Below are positions 20,150 through 63,604 of a stretch of 64,000 nucleotides of DNA, in pieces. The stretch is from a virus (Duplodnaviria; Caudoviricetes). Location of the stretch: positions 1-64,000 of the IMG/VR virus record IMGVR_UViG_3300043748_000050; one strand, given 5' to 3'. Under the pieces are notes generated by a model. It ran no database searches. It had not been told where the DNA came from and saw nothing but the letters and a program-made list of their open reading frames with translations. The stretch's first letter is position 1. Each line of letters opens with the position of its first letter. Made by a program: the position numbers and the translations under genes.

Positions 20150-20292
20150 GGTCGGGCCTCCCCTTCGTTCCTTGGTCCGGTAGTACGAGTGCCCCCGCCC
20201 GGGGGAGGTGGGCGAGGGCACTGCACGCCGTGGCAGGACGGGGGTTGTTCGCCACGGCGGGGTGGCACGGAGTGTGCCAGTGGTTCGCCGAA

Positions 20293-20748
20293 TCACCGAA
20301 CGGCCGGGAGCGCCCAGCGTTCGGCATCCGTGCGGCGCAGGTGGGCCGCTGTCGCGGCGCGGGCGCCCGGTGAGAGACGCACCGCGAGGTTGGTGGAGGC
20401 CATGCGGCCGCGCAGGCCGATGACGACTGCCGCCTCCCCGTACGGCTCGGCGCAGCGCAGCCACGCCTCGGTGTGCGTGGACCACACCAGCGCGAGTTCG
20501 TCCGGATAGACGGCCAGGCGGTACCCGGACCGGTCCAGCGGGTTGCCTCCCATGCTGGCCGGCTCGGCCTCGCCCGCGAACCACGCGGCCAGCGGGCGCA
20601 GCCACCCGGTCCGAAGGACGACGCTCATGCGGCCGCCGAACCCGGACCGGTCCAGGTCCCACACGGTCATGGACGTCGTGCCGTCGGTGGACTGAGTGAG
20701 CCGCAGTGCGGTGCCGGGTGCGCTCCCGGTGATCTCGAACGGTTCCAC
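20293..20748 (-). CDS. Hypothetical protein
   Basis: GACCAAGGAAGG upstream of GTG. Confidence 0.65.
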   Translation of the reverse strand: MEPFEITGSAPGTALRLTQSTDGTTSMTVWDLDRSGFGGRMSVVLRTGWLRPLAAWFAGEAEPASMGGNPLDRSGYRLAVYPDELALVWSTHTEAWLRCAEPYGEAAVVIGLRGRMASTNLAVRLSPGARAATAAHLRRTDAERWALPAVR

Positions 20749-20889
20749 GGTGGTGCCTTCCTTGGTCTGTTGCCGTGAGGGGCGGCGTGCTCCCGGCCGG
20801 TCACGATCCGGCATCTCCGCCTTGAGAGGGCGGAAGGCATCCATTACCCCACGGGAGCGGGTCGGGGCCTAACGGCCCCTGTTGAGCGG

Positions 20890-21096
20890 TCAGTTCTCAC
20901 CGTCCTCGCGGACCGGGCGGCGCCCGGACCACCCGACGAAGGCCGACGTGACACCCAGGGCGGTGCACGCGCCGGCGAGCATCGCGCCCGCCGTGGCAAG
21001 GGTCTTCGCCCCGTGCTCGGCCGCGTCGCCGGCCGCCACGGCGGAGCCGACGCCGACGGTCAGTAAGCCGGCTGCCAGCTTCAGGGACTTGTTCAT
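20890..21096 (-). CDS. Small 2-TM membrane protein
   Basis: Leader motif plus GAGGA; hydrophobic segments. Confidence 0.65.
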   Translation of the reverse strand: MNKSLKLAAGLLTVGVGSAVAAGDAAEHGAKTLATAGAMLAGACTALGVTSAFVGWSGRRPVREDGEN

Positions 21097-21141
21097 GATC
21101 GATTCCTCGTTCCTTGGTCGGTGGTGCTCGGGGTGGCGCGG

Positions 21142-21393
21142 TCAGTCCTCCGCGATGCTGACGGATCCCGGGGTGAGGACGTTCTGGGGCAGAGTGCCGT
21201 CGGGGACTTCCAGCGTCAGCTCCACGGAGGACCTGTCCTCGGAGACCAGCGCTCCGACGATCTTGCAACCCCCTTCGACCGGATGCCCGTGGACATTCAT
21301 CGGCACGGTCTTGCCCACTTGGCCGTCAAACGCGGTCGGCGTGAACTGAGTCCCCGGGTCGGCGGGAAGGGTGTGCTTCATTCGCTGCGTCAT
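21142..21393 (-). CDS. Hypothetical protein
   Basis: Clean ORF in the minus-strand operon. Confidence 0.55.
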   Translation of the reverse strand: MTQRMKHTLPADPGTQFTPTAFDGQVGKTVPMNVHGHPVEGGCKIVGALVSEDRSSVELTLEVPDGTLPQNVLTPGSVSIAED

Positions 21394-21426
21394 GGGTCCA
21401 AGCCTTTCACTTGTCGGCGGTGGCCG

Positions 21427-21696
21427 TCAGTTGTTCAGGGCGATACGGGCCTGCTCCTCCAGGCCCACGCGGGCGATCCTTCGCAGTTCCGCGCCCTCGG
21501 GGCAGTCGTCCTGGGTGTCGCGGCAGACGGTGCAGCCGACGACGTGGTCCCGGTACTCGGCGAACGCGTCGTAGTACGGCAGCGTCGCGATCAGGTCCCT
21601 CTCCGGCACCGCGAGAGCGTCCAGCTCCACGTGACCGTGTGCCTCGGCCGCGTCCTGCATGTCGTCCAGGTTCCAGTTCGTCCACGTCGTCCGCAT
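21427..21696 (-). CDS. Hypothetical protein (H..C..C...C)
   Basis: First gene after the promoter at 21730-21758; leader motif. Confidence 0.7.
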   Translation of the reverse strand: MRTTWTNWNLDDMQDAAEAHGHVELDALAVPERDLIATLPYYDAFAEYRDHVVGCTVCRDTQDDCPEGAELRRIARVGLEEQARIALNN

Positions 21697-21722
21697 GGCC
21701 GGTTCCTCATTCCTTGGTCTGA

Positions 21723-21758
21723 TGAATTAATTAAACCATAGCCCCGGAAGAGGGGCAA
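21723..21758 (-). promoter_or_regulatory. Sigma70-type promoter with palindromic operator-like -10
   Basis: TTGCCC-17bp-TTTAAT; -10 lies within TGGTTTAATTAATTCA. Confidence 0.8.
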
Positions 21759-21826
21759 TACCCTCGGCGCGTCCGGCCGCCGGATAGGCTCCCGTTCACC
21801 ACCACACCGACCAAGGACAAGCGACC

Positions 21827-22498
21827 ATGACACACCTGCCTCAAGAGGGCCGGCGCATCGGCATCGTCGGAAAGGGCGGTAGCGGCAAGTCCACCACGTG
21901 GGCTCACGTGCTCGCCTACTACGGATCCATCGGCGTACCGGCCATCGGCCAGGACGCGGACGAGCCCGGGGAGAACGAGAAGGGAAGCCTTCTCGCCTGG
22001 AGCGATAAGGTCAACATCGGGGCGCCGGTCTACCGTGCGCCGGCCGCGTCGGGGATCGGTGCCGAAGCCCGGCGTCTGACACCGCCGCACGGGGTCTGCC
22101 TCATCGACACCGGTGCGTGGGAACGCCGTAGCGGGAACACGCACTTCTCCGTCCTGGCGAACGTGGACCTGTGCGTGTTCGCCCTACCGCCCACGCCGAT
22201 GGAGATGGAGCGCGCGGGGTCCGTCATGAAGGCGTTCAAGCAGATGCGCGACTTCGGCCTCACCCCGCCGCGCACGGTGTTCTTGCTGACCCTGGTCAAC
22301 CCGAACGCCAACACCGCCTCCATTGGGGAGACCCGGGACGATCTGACGGACGCCGGGTTCCACGTGCTGACGACCACCATCCCCCGCAAGGACGGCCGGG
22401 GAAGCTACGCGCAGAGCTTCGGCACGATCCCCGACGTCCGGCCCGGCAGCCCCATGGCCCGGCTCGGGGACGAACTGCTGCGGGAGGTGGCTCTGTGA
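21827..22498 (+). CDS. parA: ParA-family partition ATPase
   Basis: KGGSGKSTT deviant Walker A, DAD, LIDTG. Confidence 0.88.
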   Translation: MTHLPQEGRRIGIVGKGGSGKSTTWAHVLAYYGSIGVPAIGQDADEPGENEKGSLLAWSDKVNIGAPVYRAPAASGIGAEARRLTPPHGVCLIDTGAWERRSGNTHFSVLANVDLCVFALPPTPMEMERAGSVMKAFKQMRDFGLTPPRTVFLLTLVNPNANTASIGETRDDLTDAGFHVLTTTIPRKDGRGSYAQSFGTIPDVRPGSPMARLGDELLREVAL

Positions 22499-23316
22499 GC
22501 CCTACGGGTACGCGCGCCAGCCGCGCTGATCTGCTGCGGGGGGACCGGTCGAACGCCGAGAGCGAGACGGTGAACCCCCTGCTGCCCGCCGAAGCCGCCA
22601 AACCGGCGAGCCCGTTCATTCCGCAGCCCGTCGACCCGGCAGCCGTCACTGGGTCCGCCGAGCAGCGCCTGGCCGCGTTCGAGGCCGCCATCGACCGCGC
22701 GAAGGAGACCGCTGGGACCACACTCAAGGCCGCCCGCGCCCGGTTCGTCGTGGAAGCCGGTACGGCCTTGAAAGCGATCCGAGACGAGGACGGCGGTCTC
22801 TACAAGGTCAGCCACGCCACGTTCGAGGAGTACATCGCCGGCCGGTGGGAGATGGACCGCTCCCGGGCGTACCAGCTCATCGACGCGGCGCCGGTCATGC
22901 TGGTCATGTCGAAAATTTTCGATGCCGCCCCGGTCGAGTCGCACGCCCGCATCTTGGCCCCGGTGTACGAGGGGCACGGCGAGCCGGCCGTCCGCGAGGT
23001 CGTCGCGGCTGTGAGCACCACCGGCGAGAAGATCACAGCAGCGGCCATCCGTGAGGCCGCCGGCCGGCTCAACTACCTGCCCGACCCGATCCCGCCGGCC
23101 GACGGCAAGCCCGAAGAACTGCCGACGGACCACAGCCGCACCGAGGCCCGCGCGCTGGTGCGCCTCGAACAAGGTCTGGCCGCGCTGAAGGTGGCGCACC
23201 GGGCGCTGCGCGGGCGGGTCATCCCCGACGCCGTGGCGGCCGACCACGAGCACGGCAGCGAGCTGGTGGGGGAGGTCGCCGACCTCGCGAGGAGGGTCCT
23301 CCTGCTGACGAAGTGA
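22495..23316 (+). CDS. ParA partner / centromere-binding-like protein
   Basis: Coupled to parA; G.AL.AIRD..LY....TFEEY...RW...RSRAYQLI HTH-like segment. Confidence 0.65.
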   Translation: MSPTGTRASRADLLRGDRSNAESETVNPLLPAEAAKPASPFIPQPVDPAAVTGSAEQRLAAFEAAIDRAKETAGTTLKAARARFVVEAGTALKAIRDEDGGLYKVSHATFEEYIAGRWEMDRSRAYQLIDAAPVMLVMSKIFDAAPVESHARILAPVYEGHGEPAVREVVAAVSTTGEKITAAAIREAAGRLNYLPDPIPPADGKPEELPTDHSRTEARALVRLEQGLAALKVAHRALRGRVIPDAVAADHEHGSELVGEVADLARRVLLLTK

Positions 23317-23326
23317 CGGCGCGCAG

Positions 23327-23716: not shown

Positions 23717-23843
23717 GGTCAGTTCCTCTCTTCCTTGGTCCGGGCGTACCGGTTGATCAGGGCGTGTGCCGCCCAGCCGAGGCCGAGCAGCAGCGCGGAT
23801 GCGAACGGCGCGCACACGATGGCGACGCCGATGGTTCGGGCGG

Positions 23844-24290: not shown

Positions 24291-24331
24291 CTCTCCTCGT
24301 TTCCGTGGTCGTCGGTCGCTTCGGTCGCTGT

Positions 24332-24430
24332 TGGTGGGTCCGTCCGGAGTTGAACCGGAGTCTTCCCGGAGCGCGGGAACCGACCAAGGAACGCGCTCGA
24401 CGGGTGCACTGCCTTCTGTGCTACGGACCC
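24332..24430 (-). ncRNA. tRNA-like RNA with anticodon loop replaced by a hairpin displaying UUCCUUGGUCGGUUCC
   Basis: GGGUCCG/CGGACCC acceptor plus ACCA; U8A9; D arm GCAC/GUGC with GG in the loop; T arm UCCGG-UUCAACU-CCGGA; anticodon arm CCCG+GAGCGCG / CGCGCUC+CGGG closing a 16-nt loop. Confidence 0.88.
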
Positions 24431-25002: not shown

Positions 25003-25023
25003 GGTCGGTTCCTCGTTCCTTGG

Positions 25024-25254
25024 TCAGTTGACGGGGACGGTGCGCAGGCCGAGGTACAGGCCGCGTTCCCGGCCGACGTCGTAGACGCGGTTGACGATGG
25101 TCATCGCCTGGCCGTACGGCACACCGAGGGCGCGTAGCTCGTCTATGGCCGCCTGCGTCTGGTCCATGGCGGCGGTGAATCCGGGATCGGCGATGCGGTC
25201 CTCAGTGGTCACGGCGGGGTCCCCTCCCTGGGCGCCTTCGGCGGCTCGGATCAT
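25024..25254 (-). CDS. Hypothetical protein (start may be 25212)
   Basis: Downstream of the promoter at 25329-25357. Confidence 0.55.
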   Translation of the reverse strand: MIRAAEGAQGGDPAVTTEDRIADPGFTAAMDQTQAAIDELRALGVPYGQAMTIVNRVYDVGRERGLYLGLRTVPVN

Positions 25255-25321
25255 ACGGCCGAGGGCGGATTTTCGGTTCCTTGATTCCTTGGTCCGTCGG
25301 GCCGTCCTGTGGACCGCCCGA

Positions 25322-25891: not shown

Positions 25892-25982
25892 GAGGGTCCC
25901 TCTTTCCTTGGTCGCTGTTCCTATGGATTAACTAAACCAAGGATCCCGGGGTTCGGCAACCCCGGGATCCGGCCATTCGATG

Positions 25983-26681: not shown

Positions 26682-26794
26682 GGGCCCTACTTTCCTGGTT
26701 CCTTGGTCCCCGACCTAACGTGCCGGTTTAGTTAAATCATAGGCGGGCCCCGGGGGCGTGGACAACCCCGGGGCCCGGACTTTCTGCGATCGGG

Positions 26795-27157: not shown

Positions 27158-27249
27158 GGTCGGTTCCTCGTTCCTTGGTCGGGGAGGCTGAGCGGCCTCG
27201 TGAGGAGCATCGGCGTACGGGGTCCGTCGTCGATGCTCCCGGGTGGGGC

Positions 27250-28656: not shown

Positions 28657-28797
28657 GGTCGGTTCCTGCTTTCCTTGGTCTGTCGGCCGGTGTTCCCTGC
28701 CGATGAATTAATTAAATCAGAACCGGGGTGTAGGCACAACCCCCAAACGCGATGAAGCCCCGACCCGGTGAGGGGTCGGGGCTTCGAGGACGGGTGC

Positions 28798-29403: not shown

Positions 29404-29477
29404 GTCGTCCTCGTTCCTCAGTTCCTTGGTCAGGGTGGTGCAGGACCCCGGAATCGCCAACCGGGGCCCGGGGTCCG

Positions 29478-30593: not shown

Positions 30594-30666
30594 GTTTCCT
30601 CGCTCCTTGGTTCCTTGGTCAGGGTGGTGCAGGGCCCCAGAATCACCAACCGGGGCCCGGAGTCGG

Positions 30667-31272: not shown

Positions 31273-31310
31273 GGGTCTGTCCTTCCTTGGTCGCGGCGGG
31301 GCCGAGGTGG

Positions 31311-32050: not shown

Positions 32051-32914
32051 GTCCCGATGAATTAATTAAACCATCGATACGTCGTCGGCACAAGCCCTCG
32101 GACGTGACGAAGCCCCGGGCCGCGAGGGCACCGGGGCCGGGGCGGTCAGACCGGGCGGTGGCCGTCGGCGTAGACGGTGTGGATCACGGCGTACGTCGCG
32201 TCCTTGACGCCCCGGGCGATGACCGCGCGAGCGCCCCGCACGATCTCCAGCGCGCGGGCGTAGTTGGTGGCGCCGTCCACGTGCTCGACGTCCTCGAACG
32301 TCGTCTTGCCGGTGGCCGGGTCAAAGTGGGTGAAGGTCACGACGTAGCCGGTGGTGTCCGCGTGGCCGTGCTCGCAGCGCGTGTGCCCGTGCCAGTCGGT
32401 CGGCTGCGGGATCGCAGGCTTCGGCGCGATGTACCCGTGCCGGGCCGGCGCCAGGGCCTCGCGCGCCGCCTCCAGGGACGGGAAGTCGCGGGGCGTGGTG
32501 CTGTTCGGGTAGACGTGCTCAGCGGCGAGCTTGCGCGCGGTCTCCACGTCCCAGTCAGCGGCAGGGAGCAGCCAGTGTCGCCCCGTGGCGTGCAGCATCC
32601 CGTCCAGCTTCTGCGCGTAGCTACCGTCGTAGCGCGCGTAGCTACCGTCGTAGCGCGCGTCCCGGACCATCTTGATCCGCCCGTCCCGGTACAGGTTCGT
32701 GACGACCATGAGCCGGTACGCCAGCGACTCTTCACGAGCGTACGAAGACGCGGTGTACGACGGGCGCAGCTCCACCATCACGAGGTCGCCGCGACGGGCC
32801 TTGATCTGCGGGGCTGTGGTCTCGGTCATGGCTGCTGCCTTCCTTGGTCCGTCGGTTCGGCGGCTCCGTCCCGATGAATTAATTAAACCATCGATACGTC
32901 GTCGGCACAAGCCC
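32051..32914. repeat. 47-bp identical direct repeats (promoter/operator unit) at 32051-32097 and 32868-32914
   Basis: GTCCCGATGAATTAATTAAACCATCGATACGTCGTCGGCACAAGCCC; 28-bp partial copy at 29803-29830. Confidence 0.9.
32146..32829 (-). CDS. Hypothetical protein with a 21-bp tandem duplication (ARYDGSY x2)
   Basis: Leader motif at 32840; repeat at 32613-32660. Confidence 0.7.
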   Translation of the reverse strand: MTETTAPQIKARRGDLVMVELRPSYTASSYAREESLAYRLMVVTNLYRDGRIKMVRDARYDGSYARYDGSYAQKLDGMLHATGRHWLLPAADWDVETARKLAAEHVYPNSTTPRDFPSLEAAREALAPARHGYIAPKPAIPQPTDWHGHTRCEHGHADTTGYVVTFTHFDPATGKTTFEDVEHVDGATNYARALEIVRGARAVIARGVKDATYAVIHTVYADGHRPV

Positions 32915-32976: not shown

Positions 32977-33342
32977 TCAGGCGCGGTCCACGCGGAACGC
33001 GTAGCCGCTGCCCGCGTGCGCCACCGTCGTACCGAGCGGCTGGCCGGTCAGGCCGTGGGCGAACCGGCGGGCCTCGCCGCGCGGCACGCGGGAGGTGTCC
33101 ATCAAGCAGTAGGCGGCGGCGAACTCCACCTCGCGCAGCGTCCCCAGCGGCCGGTGCGACTTCTCCTCACCGCTCGGCAGGGTCCGGGTGAGCAGGTACT
33201 GCATGGGTTCCTCGTTTCCTTGGTCGGCGGCTCGCGCTTCGCTGCGGAGGGCCAGATACTCCATGAACTCCTCCACGACCGCCCGGTCCCCGGGGCTCAT
33301 GCGGAAGTTCGGGTTGTTGCCGCAGGGCGGCCCGTCGCTCAT
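32977..33342 (-). CDS. Hypothetical protein (probable second start at 33204)
   Basis: Leader motif at 33216 precedes an in-frame ATG. Confidence 0.6.
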   Translation of the reverse strand: MSDGPPCGNNPNFRMSPGDRAVVEEFMEYLALRSEARAADQGNEEPMQYLLTRTLPSGEEKSHRPLGTLREVEFAAAYCLMDTSRVPRGEARRFAHGLTGQPLGTTVAHAGSGYAFRVDRA

Positions 33343-34004: not shown

Positions 34005-34050
34005 GAGGTTCCTCGTTTCCTTGGTCTGTCAAGCTGAATTAATTAAACCA

Positions 34051-36993: not shown

Positions 36994-37412
36994 AGCCCCG
37001 GGCCGTTGCGGCGCCGGGGCTTTGGGTGTTGGTCAGCCCATCGGCTCCCGTTGACCGGTGAACCGGTTGAGCCGGACCCAAGAGCCGTCCGCGCGGCGGT
37101 CGGCCACGGAGTCGCGGTTGCCGTTCCGGCTCCTCTCGTTCCAGACGGCCACGTGACCGGGGACGTCCAGGCGGTCCAGGAAGTCCTTCGCCTCTCGGAA
37201 CGTGGTGGACTCCTGCTCCCGGCCAGCGAAGCGGCGTCCGTCGCGGACCACGGTCTCGGTCGCCATGTAGGTCCGCTTGGCGTTGCGGGGAATTCGTGTG
37301 GTCATGGTCCGTGCTCCTTGGTCGGCGTCCTGGTGAATTAATTAAACCATCGACGTGGACGGAACGCAATCCAGGGCACGACAAAGCCCCGGCGCCGCAA
37401 CGGCCCGGGGCT
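36994..37412. repeat. 31-bp exact inverted repeats (terminator hairpins) flanking a one-gene cassette
   Basis: 36994-37024 is the reverse complement of 37382-37412. Confidence 0.85.
37033..37305 (-). CDS. Hypothetical protein
   Basis: Promoter TTGCGT-17bp-TTTAAT (37341-37369). Confidence 0.7.
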   Translation of the reverse strand: MTTRIPRNAKRTYMATETVVRDGRRFAGREQESTTFREAKDFLDRLDVPGHVAVWNERSRNGNRDSVADRRADGSWVRLNRFTGQREPMG

Positions 37413-37957: not shown

Positions 37958-37978
37958 GATTCCTCGATTCCTTGGTCT

Positions 37979-38033
37979 GCCTCGTCAGTACCGGGGGACC
38001 GTTCCCGGCAGACGCCCCGCAGGGCGTTTCGGC
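37979..38033 (-). ncRNA. Type II hammerhead ribozyme, copy 1
   Basis: GCC-GAAA-CGCCC(UGCG)GGGCG-UC^-UGCCGGG(AACGGUCC)CCCGGUA-CUGACGA-GGC; cleavage predicted between 38011 and 38010. Confidence 0.85.
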
Positions 38034-38049
38034 TATCCATGGTGGCGGA

Positions 38050-38253: not shown

Positions 38254-38296
38254 GGCTTCCTCGGTTCCTTGGTCAGGTGGTGCGTGGACAGGCGGG

Positions 38297-38392: not shown

Positions 38393-38429
38393 GGCTCCCT
38401 CATTCCTTGGTCGGTCGTGCGTGAACAGG

Positions 38430-39113: not shown

Positions 39114-39138
39114 GGTCGGTTCCTCGTTTCCTTGGTCT

Positions 39139-39193
39139 GCCTCGTCAGTACCGGGAGACCGTCCCCGGCAGACGCCCCTCGGGGCGTTTCGGC
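39139..39193 (-). ncRNA. Type II hammerhead ribozyme, copy 2
   Basis: GCC-GAAA-CGCCC(CGAG)GGGCG-UC^-UGCCGGG(GACGGUCU)CCCGGUA-CUGACGA-GGC; differs from copy 1 only in loops; cleavage between 39171 and 39170. Confidence 0.85.
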
Positions 39194-39195
39194 TG

Positions 39196-39675: not shown

Positions 39676-39816
39676 GGTCCGCTCCCGTCTGGTCGTGGGT
39701 CGGGCTCTTCCCGACTGATTTAATTAAACCATCCGGGTGCGGGTCTCCACAAGACCCCGATTCCAAGAAGTTTCGGCCGACTCGCCGATCCGCTCACCTG
39801 CGGATACGGTGCCGAC

Positions 39817-40481: not shown

Positions 40482-40569
40482 GGTCGGATTCCTTCGGTTC
40501 CTTGGTCAAAGGGCCGCTGATCAGCGGCCCTGAATTAGTTGTACCACGTCGGCGGCCGGGTCAATCGGC

Positions 40570-40959
40570 TCAGTACGCGAGGGTGTAGCTCGTCCCGTCC
40601 GCCGTCTTCTCCTTCACCAGGTCGCCGTCGCCCACTCGCTCGTCCAGCCACTTGTACACCCACTGCCGCGAGCGTTCCGTGACTCCCATCAGGTCCCGGA
40701 AGTCCTGGAACGTGACCCGCTTGGCCCCCTTCCGCCGCAGCGAGACCAGCCGTTGGTACATCACGTCGTTCGCGTCCTTCGGGCTCATCACGGACTTCGG
40801 GGCGGGAAGTTCGATCACTGTGGCGCCGTCGCGCAGCCCGCCGAAGACGAAGCCCAGCGCCTCCTCGGCGACCGCCAGGCCGCACCGCGCGCACAGCGAC
40901 ACGACCTTCGTCAGCGTTGCCGGGGCGCCGCAGGAGGAGCAGTTCATTTCCTTGGTCAT
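40570..40959 (-). CDS. Zn-finger plus winged-helix protein
   Basis: CSSC..CARC; TFQDF......RSRQWV...L......G.L. Confidence 0.6.
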   Translation of the reverse strand: MTKEMNCSSCGAPATLTKVVSLCARCGLAVAEEALGFVFGGLRDGATVIELPAPKSVMSPKDANDVMYQRLVSLRRKGAKRVTFQDFRDLMGVTERSRQWVYKWLDERVGDGDLVKEKTADGTSYTLAY

Positions 40960-43833: not shown

Positions 43834-43964
43834 TCCTGGTTCCTCTTCCTTGGTCGAAGGCGAAAGCCTCACCAGGGTCATCCCCAGTGAGGCTTTACCT
43901 AAATCAAGCGTCCCGCGATTGGCCGCGATGCGCAATCAGTTCTTCGGCCCGTCAGGACCGCACG

Positions 43965-45353: not shown

Positions 45354-45504
45354 GGTCGATTCCTAGATTCCGTGGTCGGGATGATTTCCTTAAATCATCC
45401 TACACGGACTCCCTGCCCCGGCAACAGTCAGATCATGCCGAGAAGCCCCTACGGGAATCCCGCAGGGGCTGACTGTGAGCTGTTTGTCCGGTTCTGTCGG
45501 TAGG

Positions 45505-45747: not shown

Positions 45748-45817
45748 GGGTTTACCTTCCTCGTTCCTTGGTCTGATTTCCTTAAATCAGCGTACCCGGC
45801 GGTGAACCGACGCAACC

Positions 45818-49590: not shown

Positions 49591-49749
49591 TGGTCTCAGT
49601 CTCCTCAGTCCGTGGTCCTGCTCCGAGCGTACCCATCGGATAAACCCCGACATAGTCGGGTCCAGGACGCGTCAAGGAGCGTGACCAGCCAGCCTAGCGG
49701 GTACGTGTGATTTAACGAAATGACCTGGTATGGGGTGGAGGACCAAGGA

Positions 49750-50319
49750 ATGCGGATCATGGGACTAGACCTGTCGATGACGGCCACCGGCGTGGCCTTC
49801 CCGGACGGCAGTACGGCTGTCATCAAGCCCAGCGGCGAGGGCGACGCCCGGCTGCTCAGCATCGAGGCGTGGACGGACAAGGCCATCGCCGTGGCCCGGC
49901 CACAGCTCGCCGTGATCGAGCAGTTCGGGGCGTTCCAGGGCTCCGCCGCTCGGACGGTCCCGATGGTGCACGCCGTGGTCCGGATGCGCCTCATGCACGC
50001 GGGGATCCCGTACGTGCTGTTCACCCCACAGACGCTGAAGACCTTCGCCACCGGGCGGCACACCGCTGACAAGGCCGCCATGATGCTGGCCGCCTTCAAA
50101 CGAATGGGCCGCGAGTTCACCGACGACAACGAATGCGACGCCGCGTGGCTGCGCGCGGCCGGCCACTACGCCTACGGCGAGCCGGTCGTGGACCTGCCGA
50201 AGTCACACACGGAGGCCCTGCACAAGGTGATCTGGCCGCGCATAGCCGGCGCCGGCGAGCCGATCACCCACGTGGCGGCAAAGAAGCCGACCCGCCGACG
50301 GCGAGCCGTGGCGGCCTGA
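49750..50319 (+). CDS. RuvC-like Holliday junction resolvase
   Basis: IMGLDLS..ATG, VIE, P.TLK.FATG...ADK..M, DDNECDA. Confidence 0.8.
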   Translation: MRIMGLDLSMTATGVAFPDGSTAVIKPSGEGDARLLSIEAWTDKAIAVARPQLAVIEQFGAFQGSAARTVPMVHAVVRMRLMHAGIPYVLFTPQTLKTFATGRHTADKAAMMLAAFKRMGREFTDDNECDAAWLRAAGHYAYGEPVVDLPKSHTEALHKVIWPRIAGAGEPITHVAAKKPTRRRRAVAA

Positions 50320-51053: not shown

Positions 51054-51151
51054 CGGTGCGCGGCCGGGATTCGAACCCGGGATCTTCCTGGACTTACCGG
51101 CACGGGGATGACCGGGGTCCTGGGTGCTCTGGCCTGTTGAGCTACCGCGCG
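51054..51151 (-). ncRNA. Second tRNA-like RNA with expanded anticodon arm
   Basis: CGCGCGG/CCGCGCA acceptor (C1:A72), UA, D arm GCUC/GAGC, T arm CCGGG-UUCGAAU-CCCGG; extended arm GGAC..CCGG(UCAUCCCCGUG)CCGG..GUCC; ends ACCG, not ACCA. Confidence 0.75.
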
Positions 51152-51411: not shown

Positions 51412-54213
51412 TCAGCCGGCCGGTTCGGTCAGTTCCGCGAGCCGGTTCTGCATGATCCGGACCAGCTCGGCCACCTCGTCCTTGGGCATGCCGGCGTCCG
51501 TCGCCTCCTTCCAGACGGCCGACGCCTCACCCTTGGACGTGATCCGGTTCGCCCGCTCCTTCAGCGTCGGCGGCCGGACCGTGGTCCGCGAGGTCACCGC
51601 CGGCTCGGAGGGCTGCGCCCGCCGGGGCTCGAACGTGTCCGCTGCCTGAGCCACCATCACCGGGGCGGCGAGCTTGCGGACGCTGCGCCAAGTCCGCACC
51701 CGCTCGCACAGCACGGCCGCGTTCCAGCCGGACTCCAGGTCCAGGCCGTAGACGGTCGGCGTCTTCTCGGATTCCTTGTCCACCGGAAGGTGGATGATGA
51801 CCCCGGCGTCCGTGCGGACCTTGGCGCCGTTCAGCGGGTCCGGGTGCCACTTCTCCTCGTGGCGGTCCCACACGCCGGACGTGTTGATGCCCTGCGCGTA
51901 CGTGCTGAGCTGGATCGCGTGCTCCTGCCAGCCGTAGTCCAGGTCCCGGCCGGTCTTCTTGTCGCCGATCACGTACTCGCCGGGCTGGAACTGGACCGCT
52001 CCCCGGCCGATGGTCAGCGTGAGCGGCTTGGTCGTCCGGTAGCAGTTGTCACTCGTGCCCGCGACGCCGTACTGCTTGACCACCGTCGTGAACTCGATGA
52101 GGTTCGACACGGGCTCCAGGCCGGTCTCCTCCAGCAGCCGGATGTACGTCTCCACCATCTCGCGGCAGTCCGACGGCACCTGGTTCATCACCGAGCGGGG
52201 ACCGCCGGGGGAGTGCCAGGCCCGGTCCACCATCTCCGTGAAGGAGTGCATCGCAGTGCCGTCGTTGGCGGCGACCTTGGCGCCGGCGGCGTCCTTCAGC
52301 TCCGCCGTCAGCTCGTCCAGCAGTTTCTTGTCCGCCCGGACGTGCTTGCCGTGCGCCCGCCGGACGATGTCCGGGCGCTGCGTCGCCCCGAGCAGGCACA
52401 TCCTCAGCCCCCACTGACCCAGGGCGTAGGTGTCGCTGATGGACTTGGCGAACGTCGTCGCCCGGGTCCACGACTGCTCCTTGCCTGTGTCCGGGTGCGG
52501 GATCAGGTACCGACCGAACCGGTCGCGCTTGGTCTCCTTCTCCCCGTGGGAGCCGCCCGCGCCGGCGAGGAACTGCGCGGCCGCGTCCGCCTGGTCAGTC
52601 GTGGAGCTTTCAGCCACCGCAGCACTCCTGACCTTCGTACCCGCCTTCGCCGTCGGCGCGGATGATGTCACCGACTGCGATTTCGGCGAAACAGCCGGAG
52701 CACTCGCCTTCGTAGGCGGCCTCGAACCAGGGGCCGGGGCCGTCGTCGGCGAGGTCGGAGAAGAAATCCTCGACTCGGTCACGCATTCCTTGATCTCCTG
52801 TTCCTTGGTCGGGTCGCAGTACTCGCAACGGTCCTGAACGCGGCCGTTCTCCTCGTCCACGTCCTCGTAGTAGCTGTGGCGGCAGTACGTGCGCTCGACT
52901 GTCTCGCCGAGGTTCATCAGCTCGCCGGTCCGGCCCTTGTGCGGGCCCTCCACGACGATCGCCTTCACCACGCCGTTGACCTCGCCGGTGACGCGCATGA
53001 GCACGCCGTGCCGGAAAAAGTGCTCATCCGACTCCAGGTGGCCGAGCAGCACGCGGGCGTCCGGCTTGCACTCGTGGCCTCCGTTGTCGCAGCTGAGAGT
53101 CCCGGCGTTCTGAGCCGGCTCGCAGCACCACAACACGGACTTGGCCTTGCCGTACAGGTCGAACGCTTCCACCAGCGGCGTCACCGGGTGGCCGCACGCG
53201 GCGCAGTTGAGCCGCAGCGCGTCCAGGCCCCTGACGTCCTCGGGCATCTTCTCCATGAGGTCCAGCGGGGTGCGCCAGCCGTCATCCTCGGGGCAGCCGC
53301 AGCCGGCCCGGTGCGTCTCACGGGCGCAGTCGGCGCACGCTACGGTGCCGTGCTTGACGTCCTCGCCGCAGCCGGGGCAGCGGTGGGTGTTGGTGTTGCA
53401 CTGCTCGCAGTTCGGGTCGAACCCTTCGGGCAGCGACCGCCGGTAGCGGGCTTCGGAGCACTCGGGTGTCCGGCACTTGTCCTCCAGGCCGGGGTGCACC
53501 CACTGCACACCCGTGGAGTCGGTGTACGCGTGCTCCACAGTGGTCGCCGGCTGCTCCGGGATCGCGGCGGCCATGAACCGCTCCGCCTCCGCGCGCATGT
53601 CTCCGGGCATCACGTCCAGCACGGTTCCGGTGCTGCGCACCTCTTTGGTCAGCAGATCGGTGAGCGGCGTCGCCTTGAGCTGGTCGGCCATCGTTTGCCG
53701 TGCTTCGGCCGCTCCGCCCCACGTGACGCCTTCGCAGGGCGTCGTCCTCACGGTCAGGTCTCCTGCCTCCAACGGCTCGCTCAGGGCGGCCTGGCAGGCG
53801 TGGCAGGCCCCGACCTCGCAATGGTCACAGTCGAACTCGAGCGTGGCCACCCGGCCGTCGGTGGTGCCGACGATCTCTGGGTACGTGCCGAGCGGGAAGT
53901 CCGAGCCGGCGGGGCACGGTCGGGGCGTGGCCTCGGGGGTGAGGTGGCTGCGGGCCCGGCCGTTGTCGGTGAGTTGCACCGGGTGCCTGCACAGGCGGCA
54001 CTGTGGGCCGTCAGCCTCCATGTCTTCAGCGAGGGCCAGGGGCGCCGCTCCGGCCGGGGGCTCGCCGGCCCCCTTGCACTTGCGGCTGTCCGGGCCGGCC
54101 TGGAGGTCGGGGTTCTCGGTCAGGTGGTGGCGGATCGTTCCGTTCGCCGTCACGGTGTACTCGTTGCCGCACGTCCCGCACGGCTCGCGTCGGACAGTCC
54201 TGTCCTCAGTCAT
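51412..54213 (-). CDS. PD-(D/E)xK exonuclease (C-terminal part, probable own start at 52617) in frame with a Cys-rich multi-Zn-finger N-terminus
   Basis: RDRFGRY, TRATTFAK, GTAMH, IE, AGTSD, IGDKKTG, IQL.TY. Confidence 0.75.
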   Translation of the reverse strand: MTEDRTVRREPCGTCGNEYTVTANGTIRHHLTENPDLQAGPDSRKCKGAGEPPAGAAPLALAEDMEADGPQCRLCRHPVQLTDNGRARSHLTPEATPRPCPAGSDFPLGTYPEIVGTTDGRVATLEFDCDHCEVGACHACQAALSEPLEAGDLTVRTTPCEGVTWGGAAEARQTMADQLKATPLTDLLTKEVRSTGTVLDVMPGDMRAEAERFMAAAIPEQPATTVEHAYTDSTGVQWVHPGLEDKCRTPECSEARYRRSLPEGFDPNCEQCNTNTHRCPGCGEDVKHGTVACADCARETHRAGCGCPEDDGWRTPLDLMEKMPEDVRGLDALRLNCAACGHPVTPLVEAFDLYGKAKSVLWCCEPAQNAGTLSCDNGGHECKPDARVLLGHLESDEHFFRHGVLMRVTGEVNGVVKAIVVEGPHKGRTGELMNLGETVERTYCRHSYYEDVDEENGRVQDRCEYCDPTKEQEIKECVTESRISSPTSPTTAPAPGSRPPTKASAPAVSPKSQSVTSSAPTAKAGTKVRSAAVAESSTTDQADAAAQFLAGAGGSHGEKETKRDRFGRYLIPHPDTGKEQSWTRATTFAKSISDTYALGQWGLRMCLLGATQRPDIVRRAHGKHVRADKKLLDELTAELKDAAGAKVAANDGTAMHSFTEMVDRAWHSPGGPRSVMNQVPSDCREMVETYIRLLEETGLEPVSNLIEFTTVVKQYGVAGTSDNCYRTTKPLTLTIGRGAVQFQPGEYVIGDKKTGRDLDYGWQEHAIQLSTYAQGINTSGVWDRHEEKWHPDPLNGAKVRTDAGVIIHLPVDKESEKTPTVYGLDLESGWNAAVLCERVRTWRSVRKLAAPVMVAQAADTFEPRRAQPSEPAVTSRTTVRPPTLKERANRITSKGEASAVWKEATDAGMPKDEVAELVRIMQNRLAELTEPAG
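52610..52786 (-). CDS. Nested 58-aa Zn-binding protein in an alternative frame
   Basis: Leader motif at 52801 plus AGGAG; A.YEG.C..C...I..GD.I...C. Confidence 0.55.
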   Translation of the reverse strand: MRDRVEDFFSDLADDGPGPWFEAAYEGECSGCFAEIAVGDIIRADGEGGYEGQECCGG

Positions 54214-54285
54214 GGGCGTACTTTCCTCGTTCCTTGGTCAATGGCCTAACGGCCAGGTGGGGAGGGGTGTTGGCCCCTCCCGGGG

Positions 54286-57420: not shown

Positions 57421-57779
57421 GCGGCACGCCTCCCTTCGAGCACTTCGGCGGGCAGCGGCCCGCGTTCGAAACGGATCCGGCGGCCGGCGGGAGCCCAGAA
57501 CCAGCGGTACGGGAACGTCCGGATGCTCAGCTCGATGAGCGCGACCGCCCGGTGGTGCCCGTCGTTCAGGTACGTCACGAGGTCCCGGCGCCGGACGGCG
57601 ACCGTCAGCGGTTCCAGGACCCCCTCGTCCGGGATGGACTCCATCAGCTCGTCCAGGATCTCCCGCTCGTACCTATCGGTCTTGATCGTGTGACAGGCGG
57701 TCGCCCAGTCCGGGAAGTCGCCGCACCCGATCATCCCGTCGTCCAGCAGACTGACGGGGAGTGTGGGCCAGCGACTCAT
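57417..57779 (-). CDS. ParB/Srx-like N-terminal domain protein
   Basis: L.ESI...G.LEPL.V......DGHHRA.AL. Confidence 0.65.
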   Translation of the reverse strand: MSRWPTLPVSLLDDGMIGCGDFPDWATACHTIKTDRYEREILDELMESIPDEGVLEPLTVAVRRRDLVTYLNDGHHRAVALIELSIRTFPYRWFWAPAGRRIRFERGPLPAEVLEGRRAA

Positions 57780-58096
57780 GCGGCCACCGCTCCCTCGAGC
57801 ACCGGGCGGTTCCAGGCGCGCTGCGCCGGGTCCTCAGCGTTGCGGACGTCGTACTTGTGCACCGCGATCAGGTGCTCCCACAGGTCGGCGAAGTGCTCGT
57901 TGTCGTCCTGGCCGCCGTACGGCGTCGTCCAATAGCAATCCTTGCGGGGGCAGTCGACGCACGGGCCTGTGGAGTGGATGGCCCGTCGGCGCTCGCGACC
58001 GAGTGTGTCGGCCAGGTCGCAGTCCTCCACCGGGTCCAGCACGTCGGAGCCGAGCAGGTTCAGTGTTGCCGCGTACGCGGTCTCTTCCTTGGTCAT
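57776..58096 (-). CDS. Hypothetical protein
   Basis: GGAGG RBS; C...C...H...H. Confidence 0.5.
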   Translation of the reverse strand: MTKEETAYAATLNLLGSDVLDPVEDCDLADTLGRERRRAIHSTGPCVDCPRKDCYWTTPYGGQDDNEHFADLWEHLIAVHKYDVRNAEDPAQRAWNRPVLEGAVAA

Positions 58097-58324
58097 GGAT
58101 CCGTGATCCTCCCAGCGGGGTGCACAATCACCGAACCCGCACGTCACGAGGATCGCGGGACTCGCTGACTTCGCCCCATCTGTGCCCGGCGTCCCGGGTG
58201 TTCCTTGGTCTTTGGTCGGCGGGTCCCCGTCGGGCCCCTCTGTCCGTTATGGTACCCGTCGTGTAAGTGCGTGTAAACACGGGTATCATCGATACGCGTA
58301 CTTACACATCATCAAGGAGGAAGC

Positions 58325-58549: not shown

Positions 58550-59043
58550 AGCCGGCCGAGGCGTACCAGCTCGTCACGCCGTTACCGACGACGTGGCGGG
58601 GAATCTCCTACCGGTCACGCACCGAGGCACGGTTCGCCGTCTTCATGACCGAGGCCCGGATCCCGTTCGAGCACGAGCCGCAGGCGTACCGCGTCGCCGG
58701 CCGGGGCTACCTGCCGGACTTCCGCATACGGCCCCATCACGGCGCTGACCAGGTGTGGATGGAGATTAAGCCGAGCGTGGATACCTTGGACGACCCACGC
58801 TGGCGGGCTCTTGTCCTTCAGACAAGGTCGATGCTGTTCGTCGTGCGCGGGCTGCACCGCCGGGGAGACACCTGCGGGCGTGATCACAGCGTCCGTGTCT
58901 GGCACCCCGACGGCGTGACGGCGGATGTGGACACGATGTGGACCGGGCCCGAGTACCGACACGCCTGGGACACCGCCCACGCCGCCCGATTCGATGGCGC
59001 GCGGTCCGGTCGCCCGGGACGCCGAAAGGGGAGGAGAACGTAA
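58546..59043 (+). CDS. PD-(D/E)xK nuclease-like protein
   Basis: YRSRTEARFA.F...EHEP...YLPDF...MEIKP. Confidence 0.7.
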   Translation: MKPAEAYQLVTPLPTTWRGISYRSRTEARFAVFMTEARIPFEHEPQAYRVAGRGYLPDFRIRPHHGADQVWMEIKPSVDTLDDPRWRALVLQTRSMLFVVRGLHRRGDTCGRDHSVRVWHPDGVTADVDTMWTGPEYRHAWDTAHAARFDGARSGRPGRRKGRRT

Positions 59044-59102
59044 GTGATCACCCAGCCCCACCAGACCAAGGAAGCACGGACCAAGGAAGCAGGAACAGAC
59101 CG

Positions 59103-62100: not shown

Positions 62101-63506
62101 ACCGCAGCTACTTCAGCGGCGACCTGAAGGCGACCCGGGGCGTGCGGCGCGCTCTCGGTGAGCCATCGGACTACGTCCGGCGCGAGATGCGCGTGGCCCA
62201 CCTCCAGCACCGCATGACGTTCAACGGCTGGCGCGTGGACGTCCCCGAGCTGACCCGGCTGGTGCAGGCCGAGGAGGACAAGCGGCAGGAATCCCTCCAG
62301 TGGCTGCACGAGAACTGCGGCGTGCCGCTCACCGAGACGGTCGGCACGGGCCGGGGCAAAAACCGCGTCTTCACCGAGGTGCCGAGGAAGGCCCCACTGT
62401 CTTCCAATGAGGGTCGAGACGCGCTCATCCGGGCGTTCGCCGACCGGGGTCTGCCTTACTACCTTCGGACGGCCTCCGGAACGCTCGCCACCAGCAAGGA
62501 CGCGCTGGGGGACACCGCGTACCTGGTGGGCAAGGGCAAAGAGACTCGCGAGCTGCCCGCCCTGCTCAACCCCAACCGGCGCGTGCTCCACCCGGACGCG
62601 GACTGGGCGGCCATCGAGGAGATGGCGAGTCACATCGGCCTCGTGACGTCCTCGGTGCAGAAGTACGCGGAAATCCAGAAGCACCTCGTAGGGGACCGGG
62701 TGCACCCGAAGGTCGGCGACCTCCAGGCGTCTGGCCGATGGGCGTACGTCAACCCGTCGGTGACCAACATGGGCAAGCGCGGCGGCAAGGTCCACCAGCG
62801 CCGTCCGATGATCGCGGACGACGGCATGCTGCTGATCGCGTTCGACCTGGATCAGGTCGACATGCGTGCCGTGGCCGGCCACAGCCAGGACCAGGCGTAC
62901 ATGGCGCTGTTCGAGCCCGGCATGGATGCGCACAGCATGGTCACCGACGCGGTGTTCGGCCGGGACAACTGCGAGTGCGCCGGGCCGAAGCACACCTGCG
63001 AGTGGCGGGACAAGTCCAAGGCGTCCGGCCACGGTTGGAACTACGGCATGGGTGTGAACAGCCTGGTGCTGCGCCAGGGTGTCGAGCGGACCGTGGCTCA
63101 GCAGTTCGATGATCAGATGAACAGCCAGTTCCCCGGGCTGTGCGCCTGGAGGACTGAGGTCCGCGACCGGGGCAAGGCCGGCGAGATGCTGGACAACGGG
63201 TTCGGACGGCTCATGCGCTGCAACCCCGACCGGGCGTGGACGCAGGCGCCCGCGCTGATGGGCCAGGGCGGCGCCCGGGACATCATGTGCGAAGCCCTGC
63301 TGCGGCTGGTCGAGCGGGCCCCGGAGGCCACGGAGTGGCTGCGCTGCGTCGTCCATGACGAGGTGGTCCTGTGCGTCCCCGGGGACCGCGTGGAGGAGAT
63401 CAGCGCGACGGTGCTGGACGCGTTCAGCTTCGAGTTCAAGGGCGTGCCGATCACGGCCGGGGCGAGCAAGGCGTCGGTCACGTGGAGCGGTTGCTACGCG
63501 AAGTGA
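59103..63506 (+). CDS. Primase (DUF3854/TOPRIM)-P4/D5 helicase-family A DNA polymerase fusion
   Basis: WITEG.KKAD, CFDAD, KGVDD; GGGSNGKS; FDIE and GHNLLGFD exonuclease; DLDQVDMR, RDKSKASGHGWNYG, VHDE. Confidence 0.9.
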   Translation: MTTFVGTDQGRVSDHTPQVSDSHAGELDASEIAHDVRDARGYETLYGTDEDKAFLRQQKIPYWAWKEDSAFPGLLLPMYRVTGEKIGVMFKPGEPQVLNTKKVKYATQVGKARLDIPPTVAHLVRPTEPEMLREFPLWITEGIKKADALASKGIATVTLSGVYNWRATLGTLGDWEEVPLKGRRVIICFDADARHKPDVLQAMLRLGRWLETRRVESVFYLIVPEEVNGVEVKGVDDFFHAGGTLGDLRDAATQIAPSDNTRDAAFSDAVLVETLCMETLEGRYRWASGLGWLNWNGNVWSECSEAQVLEEIRLWARAGWDRTLEEMRGGKDLSSQLAGWKGAMSASKLASLLKLARGVSGILADATDFDYDPDVINCQNGILDLRTGVLTPHDPDRLMTKITGCDYVPGATHPDWTTALEAVPGDSRDWFQTRSGQALTGHTPPDDLILILQGGGSNGKSSVMDTIAKAAGKKGGYHTAVSDKALLGNASEGHSTEMMPFMGARLAVLEETPEAKRLDVTRVKKLAGTEQITARKIRQDNVTFITTHTLIINTNFKPLVDETDHGTWRRLAMLCFPFTYRKPGEACTGPNDKRGDQNLRQRLRTDDGPRTEAALAWMVEGARKWYGDGQVMSAPPERVERDTLEWRKESDLILSFIGDVLAFDWNSHILSKELHEVFNRYLADKGHREWTDRTFVSRFGSHDECARNSVQRKKIRVRDGRSTLGGPPPKGVNYHAWIGIKFQSPDGKDEVNEGEPEGVPPVPSSPVNAENASPIEVTDEGGTAGTRPEPPADADPFGEDPFAEAESDHTPSAAIPAPAAPPAAETVQRAGGGAIGFDIESHSVLQLFTHTDLGGDPYTKLSGYVIEDGTEVVVNSPAELIKRLEDADEIYGHNLLGFDLMALARHHGADYDALAAKTVDTMRWAMTVDPPGAKGEKPWSTKGYYSLDGLAGRLGMPGKTDNLRALAIKHAPEEIDGRKLTDDERAEIGYGRIPADDPEYRSYFSGDLKATRGVRRALGEPSDYVRREMRVAHLQHRMTFNGWRVDVPELTRLVQAEEDKRQESLQWLHENCGVPLTETVGTGRGKNRVFTEVPRKAPLSSNEGRDALIRAFADRGLPYYLRTASGTLATSKDALGDTAYLVGKGKETRELPALLNPNRRVLHPDADWAAIEEMASHIGLVTSSVQKYAEIQKHLVGDRVHPKVGDLQASGRWAYVNPSVTNMGKRGGKVHQRRPMIADDGMLLIAFDLDQVDMRAVAGHSQDQAYMALFEPGMDAHSMVTDAVFGRDNCECAGPKHTCEWRDKSKASGHGWNYGMGVNSLVLRQGVERTVAQQFDDQMNSQFPGLCAWRTEVRDRGKAGEMLDNGFGRLMRCNPDRAWTQAPALMGQGGARDIMCEALLRLVERAPEATEWLRCVVHDEVVLCVPGDRVEEISATVLDAFSFEFKGVPITAGASKASVTWSGCYAK
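61375..61461. repeat. Inverted-repeat element (ori-like), copy 2, in the helicase-polymerase linker
   Basis: GTGTACCCCCTGTACC...GGTACAGCGGGTACAC around an AT-rich core. Confidence 0.7.
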
Positions 63507-63530
63507 GCTGGTCGGGACAGCTCGAGGGGG

Positions 63531-63566
63531 TTGTCCCGGCACCGTCCAGATGGTTTAATTAAATCG
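63531..63566 (+). promoter_or_regulatory. Promoter/operator cassette
   Basis: TTGTCC-17bp-TTTAAT in TGGTTTAATTAAATCG, followed by GACCAAGGAA at 63586. Confidence 0.8.
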
Positions 63567-63604
63567 AAGGGTTCGACCGAACCCCGACCAAGGAAGGCAG
63601 GACC

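Follow-up and report, generated by a model that had tools for sequence, protein, structure and literature searches.

The DNA analyzed here (the window, 64,000 nucleotides) comprises the initial 64 kb of an IMG/VR virus record, IMGVR_UViG_3300043748_000050, which is 98,039 bp long and has direct terminal repeats of 127 bp; the GC content is about 68%. Tail genes, with major tail similarity, occupy bases 1-18.9 kb and include the gene of the tape-measure protein (6492-10910; PhageMin_Tail and SLT domains). Head genes, including those of the portal and the major capsid, lie at about 89.7-98 kb, as judged from synteny with the relative pS1D4-14.2, annotated by the Prokaryotic Genome Annotation Pipeline (PGAP), so that the virion module spans the ends of the record. 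The non-structural remainder consists of a leftward block (19-58 kb) and a rightward block starting at 58 kb, and it is there that a 10-base sequence, GACCAAGGAA (hereafter the tag), recurs ahead of gene starts. Close relatives of the element are NZ_JOCT01000029.1, a whole contig in Streptomyces sp. NRRL S-455, a 92-kb contig of Streptomyces sp. NPDC017936, and the plasmid pS1D4-14.2 (NZ_CP041606.1), which encodes ParA, ParB, an integrase, and a P4-family primase. Since these are whole contigs or plasmids of Streptomyces strains, the element is a Streptomyces phage-plasmid. A tblastn search with the major-tail open reading frame (ORF) gave only about 32% identity to isolated phages, and megablast of window positions 20-40 kb against the phage collection returned a trivial match only.

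The window contains 34 exact copies of the tag, against 0.08 expected from dinucleotide-preserving shuffles, and the whole genome contains 40, against 0.15 expected under a second-order Markov model (Table 1). One-mismatch forms are also in excess (19 in the whole genome, 5.7 expected). The initial annotation had listed 33 of the exact copies and five variants (one GACCAAGGAC and four GACCACGGAA), all of which are real; the further exact copy, on the plus strand at 24382-24391, was not in its list. As it had stated, orientation follows the gene strand: 39 of the 40 exact copies lie in coding-strand orientation, and isolated opposite-strand genes switch the orientation of their tag accordingly (21809+, 49741+, 5730-). 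Genes were called with a self-trained codon model, and distances were counted between the last base of the motif and the start codon; on this basis, 35 of the 40 exact copies lie 8-30 nt ahead of a called gene start, 33 of them at 8-18 nt. The remaining five comprise two that overlap the start codon (the ATGACCAAGGAA form), one before a 31-codon ORF, the antisense copy, and one with no ORF behind it (58201), which may belong to a very short ORF or to a gene start that has decayed. To avoid circularity, the measurement was repeated on pS1D4-14.2 with its independent NCBI PGAP starts, and the motif was present 8-21 nt upstream in 35 of 145 genes, with modes at 10 and 13-14 nt. With the same starts, the start codon was ATG in 33 of the 35 motif genes and in 70 of the 109 others (P = 4e-4).

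The virion genes of this genome and of pS1D4-14.2 are never preceded by an exact copy, and the part at about 89.7-98 kb is also devoid of exact copies, which bears out the initial claim that the tag marks non-structural genes and is absent from the virion operon. The related statement that none occurs in 1-18.9 kb is true of exact copies; two one-mismatch copies lie there (5730, minus strand; 2166, plus strand). Likewise, the portal-to-tail genes of pS1D4-14.2 carry no motif except one chance-like variant. Tight packing of the virion genes was ruled out as the cause of this absence by restricting the counts to genes preceded by a gap of 10 nt or more: the motif was then found in 40 of 78 non-virion and 1 of 14 virion genes in this genome, and in 33 of 77 and 1 of 16, respectively, in pS1D4-14.2. 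The single "virion" case of this genome (5730) is a gene that sits in the tail operon on the reverse strand. Virion genes carry ribosome-binding sites of the GGAGG type.

The alignment of 154 copies from five genomes revealed a sharply bounded 10-mer, whose information content drops at both edges and is near zero over the 15 nt upstream. We therefore rejected a promoter reading of the tag. Downstream, one or two free bases are followed by R-G-G-A-A. In about a third of the leaders, the AAGGAA of the tag is the sole sequence resembling a Shine-Dalgarno (SD) site and lies 8-11 nt from the start (e.g., GACCAAGGAAggcagcagccATG). The other leaders, roughly 60-70% by a position matrix and thus most copies, as first noted by eye, have a second weak SD (GAGGAA) 5-7 nt from the start, the fullest form being GACCAAGGAA-c-GAGGAACCGACC-ATG. 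Some leaders have about 26 nt in common (GACCAAGGAAcGAGGAACCGACCATG). The 3' end of the 16S rRNA is GGCUGGAUCACCUCCUUUCU in both Streptomyces hosts (GGAUCACCUCCUUUCU). AAGGA pairs with its UCCUU, the adjoining bases on both sides cannot pair, and GACC has no partner, so that 16S pairing explains only 5 of the 10 bases of the tag. No complement of the tag of at least 8 nt was found in the 16S rRNA or in the part of the 23S rRNA searched. Against the anti-SD, duplex energies were computed as -5.2 kcal/mol for the tag and -5.9 for the second SD, compared with -10.7 for a site of the GGAGG type.

The tag is characteristic of a family of Streptomyces phage-plasmids of roughly 76-99 kb. Eight other complete or near-complete relatives carry 31, 29, 32, 33, 25, 24, 36, and 35 copies of GACCAAGGAA, and a 61-kb fragment carries 12, against 0-2 copies of a reversed-pattern control. 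The chromosomes of two Streptomyces hosts contain 12 copies (8.1 Mb) and 6 copies (8.8 Mb), while the resident 92-96-kb elements of the same two hosts hold 31 and 36; the tag is therefore not a host leader signal. In an IMG/VR search, GACCAAGGAANGAGGAA (the tag plus the second SD) was multi-copy only in this family. The single matches elsewhere look like chance, in genomes of differing GC content. The common 26-nt leader segment and the mosaicism of phage genomes at gene boundaries could suggest a functionless leader cassette, spread by duplication or by recombination at gene boundaries. We give this idea next to no credence, since the tag or a listed one-base variant is kept in 42 of 49 orthologous leaders whose flanks have diverged (the proteins being 41-88% identical), conservation falls to background immediately beyond the 10-mer, and the genes preceded are unrelated. 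Moreover, the 10-mer is kept in ten genomes and its 8-mer GACCAAGG is kept even in a sister clade, described below.

The exact copy at 24382-24391 is the sole antisense copy of the genome. It lies in a tRNA-shaped RNA that has D and T arms, an acceptor stem of 7 bp, and an encoded ACCA. A 7-bp helix (GAGCGCG/CGCGCUC) extends the anticodon arm, which ends in a 16-nt apical loop, UUCCUUGGUCGGUUCC (24376-24391). The first ten bases of this loop complement the tag exactly. In full, the loop complements GGAACCGACCAAGGAA, hence GACCAAGG(AA), and also GGAACCGACCA, which covers the second SD together with the spacer as far as the A of AUG. The computed energies of these short duplexes were -16.8 kcal/mol with the tag and -20.1 kcal/mol with the second SD and spacer. 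The RNA sits between two same-strand genes of one operon and would therefore be made together with its proposed targets.

We searched IMG/VR for homologs of this RNA with a stem-and-T-arm pattern that left the loop unconstrained. Thirteen contigs matched, 14 with this genome, and the 14-nt core of the loop, CCUUGGUCGGUUCC, was identical in all 14, while the loop flanks, acceptor stem, D arm, and T stem varied with compensatory changes. In most homologs an AACC/GGUU pairing is possible, which would leave UUGGUC as a 6-nt loop. The gene directly 3' of the RNA has a non-consensus tag in 14 of 14 loci, and the departures are of at least five kinds: six loci have GACCACGGAA, two each have GACCAGGGAA, GACCATGGAA, and GACCGAAGGAA, and one each has GTCCACGGAA and GACCACGAAA. 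Read from the sequences of related lineages, this pattern would fit an avoidance of pairing in cis and is suggestive only.

We propose that the tag is a private ribosome-binding signal of non-virion genes, acting in RNA and masked by the tRNA-shaped RNA; for the mechanism as a whole we estimate a probability of about 0.55. Its observed basis comprises the motif statistics, the position, strand, and gene class of the copies, their conservation and rarity in the host, the complementarity and invariance of the loop, and the co-location of the RNA with its proposed targets. The tag would be read in the transcript as part of the translation-initiation region, its SD half having been, in this clade, presumably weakened and duplicated. 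The RNA would be freed from the operon transcript and presumably stabilized by tRNA-processing enzymes, and its predicted binding to the tag and to the second SD is much stronger than that of the ribosomal anti-SD. Accumulating RNA would then mask the tagged sites and lower the translation of about 40-50 non-structural genes together, and virion genes, with their ordinary GGAGG sites, would be spared. We infer the production and processing of the RNA, its pairing in vivo, and a repressive rather than activating effect.

Several observations weigh against this mechanism. The Rfam tRNA model (RF00005) stayed below threshold on the RNA at 24332-24430, with no match on its strand; its loop, of 16-19 nt on an 11-bp arm, contrasts with the 7-nt anticodon loop of a tRNA. 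Conservation of the terminal AA of the tag is the same for loops that offer UU and for loops that offer AA, AG, or AU, and the bases 5' of GACC are unconserved although the loop could pair further, so that the edges of the tag are not set by the loop. GACCACGGAA, the commonest variant, disrupts the center of the loop duplex, yet it is kept on several genes. These genes may escape the proposed control or have a different reader. In this GC-rich genome, motif genes could not be told apart from the others by the duplex energies of whole leaders with the loop or with shuffled loops, and exact complementarity and short-duplex energies were used in their place. The K3, K5, and K6 mycobacteriophages, with 16-17 copies each of the start-associated sequence (SAS) of Cluster K, have no exact reverse copy of it. 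The last points of this kind come from the sister clade (G010-G013), where neither a tRNA-like RNA nor an antisense copy was found and where the conserved spacer (AACCGAUC or ACCGACC) is also present, so that the match of the spacer to the loop may be inherited and not selected.

In this sister clade, whose primase-polymerase is 50-57% identical to the one here, GACCAAGGAG serves as a normal, sole SD 5-10 nt before the ATG. In the family described here, by contrast, loop and tag are both invariant in all members. The pattern GACCAAGGA (mostly GACCAAGGAG) has 10-20 copies per genome in G010-G012, which are complete or near-complete, and 7 in the half-length fragment G013. The copies lie outside a large tag-free stretch (about 41-78 kb in G010), which we take to be the virion module. 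A GACC prefix precedes about half of the pre-start AAGGAG sites in the sister clade and 29 of 36 AAGGAA sites in this genome. As the sister clade has GACC with AAGGAR and lacks the RNA, the tag is older than the RNA and must have a partner-independent role in initiation. We accordingly treat the tRNA-shaped RNA as a regulatory layer added in this clade, like a hairpin described below for K1 phages, and not as what defines the tag.

The same data feed an alternative in which the tag is purely ribosome-binding, as a tandem or standby SD read by the 30S subunit or a host factor, and in which the RNA is used otherwise, for example as a decoy against tRNA-targeting defenses of the host or as a processing mark, its loop matching the tag by descent from a leader fragment. 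The leaders in which AAGGAA is the sole SD-like sequence, the ordinary SD of the sister clade, the terminal AA that is indifferent to the loop, and the K3, K5, and K6 phages with SAS and no exact antisense loop all speak for it. We consider it unlikely, though more probable than the other alternatives, because GACC has no partner in the 16S rRNA and the duplex of the tag with the anti-SD is weak, because one would not expect a loop unlinked to the tag to stay the same over 14 nt in 14 contigs with changing stems, and because the leader adjoining the RNA is always off consensus.

An AT-rich near-palindrome resembling GATTTAATTAAATC occurs 20 times in the window (from 5762 to 63565), against 0.04 expected, and a tag or variant lies 4-25 nt downstream of about 16 of the 20 copies, by our reading of the coordinates, which took in tags up to 40 nt away. 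Examples at 21724-21737, 28705-28718, 39717-39730, and 63552-63565 stand at the heads of apparent transcription units, where the palindrome is probably an operator or promoter element. Its presence bears on the possibility that the tag itself is a DNA-level site, at which an asymmetric DNA-binding protein would block lytic-gene transcription in the plasmid-prophage state. The stoperators of Cluster A phages (L5 and Bxb1) are many asymmetric intergenic sites with an orientation tied to transcription (PMC3203893). The tag shares with them the many asymmetric copies, the orientation, and the short intergenic gaps (see the contrast drawn in PMC3203893), and the plasmid-prophage lifestyle and the several helix-turn-helix proteins encoded by pS1D4-14.2 would suit such a repressor. 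Stoperators, however, are repressor sites in both arms, including structural genes, without a fixed relation to SD or start. The tag is absent from the virion module, has a tight start spacing and an ATG bias, and contains in its 3' half the sole SD of many genes. In addition, a separate operator-like repeat already marks the heads of transcription units, and the reversed copy falls precisely within the loop of an RNA hairpin, where a further 6 nt are invariant as well. All of this makes a stoperator-like site very improbable. The initial annotation had inferred from strand-specificity that the element acts at the RNA level. Cluster A stoperators are orientation-specific too, so strand-specificity alone is no proof of this; support for it comes from the antisense copy, which lies in the loop of a conserved RNA.

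Two tags directly follow self-cleaving type II hammerhead ribozymes, both intergenic, whose 3' tail GCAGACCAAG continues into the tag. The GACC of the tag can pair with GGUC of the adjacent ribozyme hairpin, where the RF02276 consensus has a tail-loop match. A general link between hammerheads and tags was rejected, since a regex search matched only this genome among five compared. The two junctions, and the set of tags beside the tRNA-like element, would also be in keeping with a site for an RNA-binding protein or endoribonuclease of the T4 RegA or RegB type, or with a transcript-processing mark. The restriction to non-virion genes, the sharp 10-nt edges, and the SD core would all be expected of such a site, and Pope et al. 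(PMC3203893) left both a protein and an RNA partner open for SAS. This explanation seems improbable to us, given that no candidate protein was identified, that the invariant antisense loop would go unexplained, and that the hammerheads were restricted to a single genome of the five.

Table 1. Tag copies, variants, and associated RNA features. Distances are counted between the last base of the motif and the start codon.
Feature	Coordinates	Strand	Distance and start codon
One-mismatch copy inside coding region	2166	+	
Variant GACCGAGGAA, reverse-strand gene inside tail operon; palindrome 5762-5775 upstream	5730-5739	-	
Exact motif (gene 19709-20149)	20168-20177	-	18 nt to ATG 20149
Exact motif, sole SD-like sequence	20758-20767	-	9 nt to GTG 20748
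Exact motif + GAGGAA	21110-21119	-	13 nt to ATG 21096
Exact motif + GAGGAA; palindrome 21724-21737 directly upstream	21710-21719	-	13 nt to ATG 21696
Variant GACCAAGGAC, ParA-like plus-strand gene	21809-21818	+	8 nt to ATG 21827
Exact motif	23731-23740	-	14 nt to ATG 23716
Variant GACCACGGAA, gene directly 3' of tRNA-like RNA	24301-24310	-	10 nt to ATG 24290
tRNA-shaped RNA (ARAGORN: 99-nt tRNA; fold z -3.6)	24332-24430	-	
Antisense copy; minus strand reads UUCCUUGGUC, first 10 nt of tRNA-like loop	24382-24391	+	
Exact motif + GAGGAACCGACC	25016-25025	-	13 nt to GTG 25002
Exact motif	25285-25294	-	30 nt to ATG 25254
Exact motif	25904-25913	-	12 nt to ATG 25891
Exact motif	26699-26708	-	17 nt to GTG 26681
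Exact motif + GAGGAACCGACC	27171-27180	-	13 nt to ATG 27157
Exact motif	28671-28680	-	14 nt to ATG 28656
Exact motif	29422-29431	-	18 nt to ATG 29403
Exact motif	30611-30620	-	17 nt to ATG 30593
Exact motif, sole SD-like sequence	31283-31292	-	10 nt to GTG 31272
Variant GACCAGGGAA	32038-32047	-	10 nt to ATG 32027
Exact motif, sole SD-like sequence	32840-32849	-	10 nt to ATG 32829
Exact motif	33216-33225	-	11 nt to ATG 33204
Exact motif	34017-34026	-	12 nt to ATG 34004
Variant GACCACGGAA	36925-36934	-	10 nt to ATG 36914
Variant GACCAAGGAG	37314-37323	-	8 nt to ATG 37305
Exact motif; first 7 nt are 3' tail of hammerhead 37971-38034	37968-37977	-	10 nt to ATG 37957
Type II hammerhead ribozyme (Rfam RF02276, 61.4 bits; gathering score 37)	37971-38034	-	
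Exact motif	38265-38274	-	11 nt to ATG 38253
Exact motif, 31-codon ORF behind	38403-38412	-	10 nt to ATG 38392
Exact motif; first 7 nt are 3' tail of hammerhead 39131-39194	39128-39137	-	14 nt to ATG 39113
Type II hammerhead ribozyme, second copy (Rfam RF02276, 66.2 bits; gathering score 37)	39131-39194	-	
Exact motif	40498-40507	-	16 nt to ATG 40481
Exact motif within ATGACCAAGGAAATG; overlaps/abuts start of gene 40570-40959	40948-40957	-	
Exact motif	43846-43855	-	12 nt to ATG 43833
Variant GACCACGGAA; same variant in pS1D4-14.2	45368-45377	-	14 nt to ATG 45353
Exact motif	45764-45773	-	16 nt to ATG 45747
Variant GACCACGGAC; kept in G002 and pS1D4-14.2	49608-49617	-	17 nt to ATG 49590
Exact motif; isolated plus-strand gene within minus-strand block	49741-49750	+	8 nt to ATG 49759
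Exact motif inside 933-codon ORF 51412-54213	52801-52810	-	in-frame GTG 18 nt downstream
Exact motif	54230-54239	-	16 nt to ATG 54213
Variant GACCACGGAA	54504-54513	-	abuts ATG 54504
Exact motif within ATGACCAAGGAA; gene 57776-58096	58085-58094	-	overlaps start codon 58096
Exact motif, no ORF of at least 30 codons downstream	58201-58210	-	
Exact motif, first of tandem pair, primase-polymerase gene	59064-59073	+	29 nt to ATG 59103
Exact motif, second of tandem pair	59079-59088	+	14 nt to ATG 59103
Exact motif, sole SD-like sequence	63586-63595	+	9 nt to ATG 63605
Antisense-SAS hairpin of Adephagia	L087:33659-33718 (Adephagia about 58,658-58,717)	+	

Some of the copies deserve mention in their own right. 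The GACCACGGAA subclass is recurrent and kept in some orthologs, with copies at 24301, 36925, 45368, and 54504 (minus strand) in the window and at 75944 (plus strand) in the rest of the genome. The in-frame GTG behind the tag at 52801-52810 could be an internal start, a possibility read from the sequence, in which case the product would be a C-terminal protein of 456 residues. The two tandem tags at 59064-59088 (plus strand) are 5 nt apart and precede the gene of a 1467-residue P4-family primase-polymerase; the pair is kept in the genomes G001 and G002 and in pS1D4-14.2. A second tRNA-like RNA at 51056-51151 (minus strand) passed the Rfam tRNA model with 38.8 bits. A 35-nt insertion lengthens its anticodon arm, the apical sequence is GGUCAUCCCCGUGCC, and a homolog lies at 17115-17210 of pS1D4-14.2; no repeated target for its loop was found. 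The leftward block also carries an ordinary tRNA-Glu(CUC) gene (20788-20858, minus strand; Rfam, 49.6 bits).

The initial annotation had likened the tag to the SAS of Cluster K mycobacteriophages, and nearly every descriptive feature tested agrees. SAS (GGGATAGGAGCCC) and its extended form (ESAS) were described by Pope et al. in 2011 (PMC3203893), with a bias toward ATG starts; the role of SAS was still ill-defined in papers of 2024 and 2025 (PMC11373665, PMC12699233), and the extended form is now thought to hold promoters (PMC11373665). Both SAS and the tag are short and asymmetric, stand in sense orientation ahead of the starts of non-structural genes only, combine an SD core with conserved flanks lacking a 16S partner, are rare in the host, and prefer ATG. 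Both also have a single reversed copy per genome, at 24382-24391 in our case, and, as with the extended SAS, an inverted repeat lies upstream of a subset of the copies, although the palindrome found here is unrelated to ESAS in sequence. The tag is nevertheless an analogue of SAS and not a member of it, since the sequences are unrelated, with only the AGGA core in common (the tag is not within two mismatches of GGGATAGGAGCCC). It has 10 nt and 24-40 copies per genome, compared with 13 nt and 11-19 copies for SAS. Its distance from the start is 8-18 nt, a second SD intervening in most cases, and it occupies the ribosome-binding position in about a third of the leaders, whereas SAS lies at that position, 3-9 nt from the start. 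The tag also differs in belonging to a phage-plasmid with a Streptomyces host.

The likeness extends to the reversed copy. In phage Adephagia, the single reverse SAS (reported in PMC3203893) falls between gp92 and gp93, in a non-coding gap of 430 bp, and on the transcribed strand it forms the 10-nt apical loop CCUCCUAUCC of a long hairpin (z = -4.1). This region is kept in 142 Cluster K records, mostly unannotated. The loop is identical in five aligned K1-type phages, with compensatory changes in the stem, and the K5 phage Ekdilam has a one-base deletion in it. The K3 and K6 representatives each carry the SAS core in 17 forward copies and lack an exact reverse one. The antisense copy is thus displayed on a tRNA scaffold here and on a plain hairpin in K1 phages. 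We found no mention of the K1 hairpin in the Cluster K literature examined and no paper describing the tag, the tRNA-shaped RNA, or the K1 anti-SAS loop; a query with the 10-mer gave unrelated primer matches only, and a literature search combining Streptomyces, phage-plasmid, and tRNA-like gave nothing relevant.

From these parallels we advance, tentatively and with somewhat less than even confidence, a broader idea: the start-associated tags of actinophages may be the target sets of phage-encoded antisense-loop RNAs, a retooled tRNA here and the gp92-gp93 hairpin in K1, in which an early-made super-anti-Shine-Dalgarno decoy would turn the tagged regulon off. If true, this would constitute a general post-transcriptional timing device and would answer the question of the purpose of SAS. 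It would also be a natural case of a tRNA scaffold displaying an antisense loop, and it would provide a compact tool for switching gene sets in Streptomyces. The tag represents a second SAS-like system, unrelated in sequence, with more copies and with cultured hosts (Streptomyces sp. NRRL S-455, NPDC017936, and S1D4-14). The RNA loop is a concrete candidate partner, and the same layout is found in Adephagia, a genetically tractable phage. If the RNA proved irrelevant, the tag would still define a private class of ribosome-binding sites, and its GACC half would need another reader.

The closest parallels for the RNA itself are the c4 RNA of P1/P7 and the CI RNA of P4. These are phage-encoded RNAs that resemble tRNA precursors, are co-transcribed with their targets, and are excised by RNase P; their loops pair with the phage's own mRNAs, at the ribosome-binding site in the case of c4, and control immunity. 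The relevant studies are those of Citron and Schuster in 1990, Hartmann et al. in 1995, and Forti et al. in 1995. Like c4, the RNA described here is encoded by a phage-plasmid, has a loop complementary to the ribosome-binding region of the element's own mRNAs, and is located in an operon with them. It differs from c4 in being a near-complete cloverleaf with a lengthened anticodon arm that falls outside the Rfam C4 model (RF01695), for which there was no match at E values up to 1 in the window and none at E values up to 10 around the RNA; no Rfam family matched the RNA at 24332-24430. The scale would differ too, since c4 and CI act on one or two sites within one operon, while about 40-50 leaders genome-wide would be targets here. 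A further parallel is offered by T4, in which RegA, a translational repressor, and RegB, which cuts within the SD of early mRNAs, control numerous early messages together by way of a short sequence in their ribosome-binding sites and spare late mRNAs. No homolog of RegA or RegB was found here, where none was looked for. The effectors of T4 are proteins, whereas the one proposed here would be an RNA.

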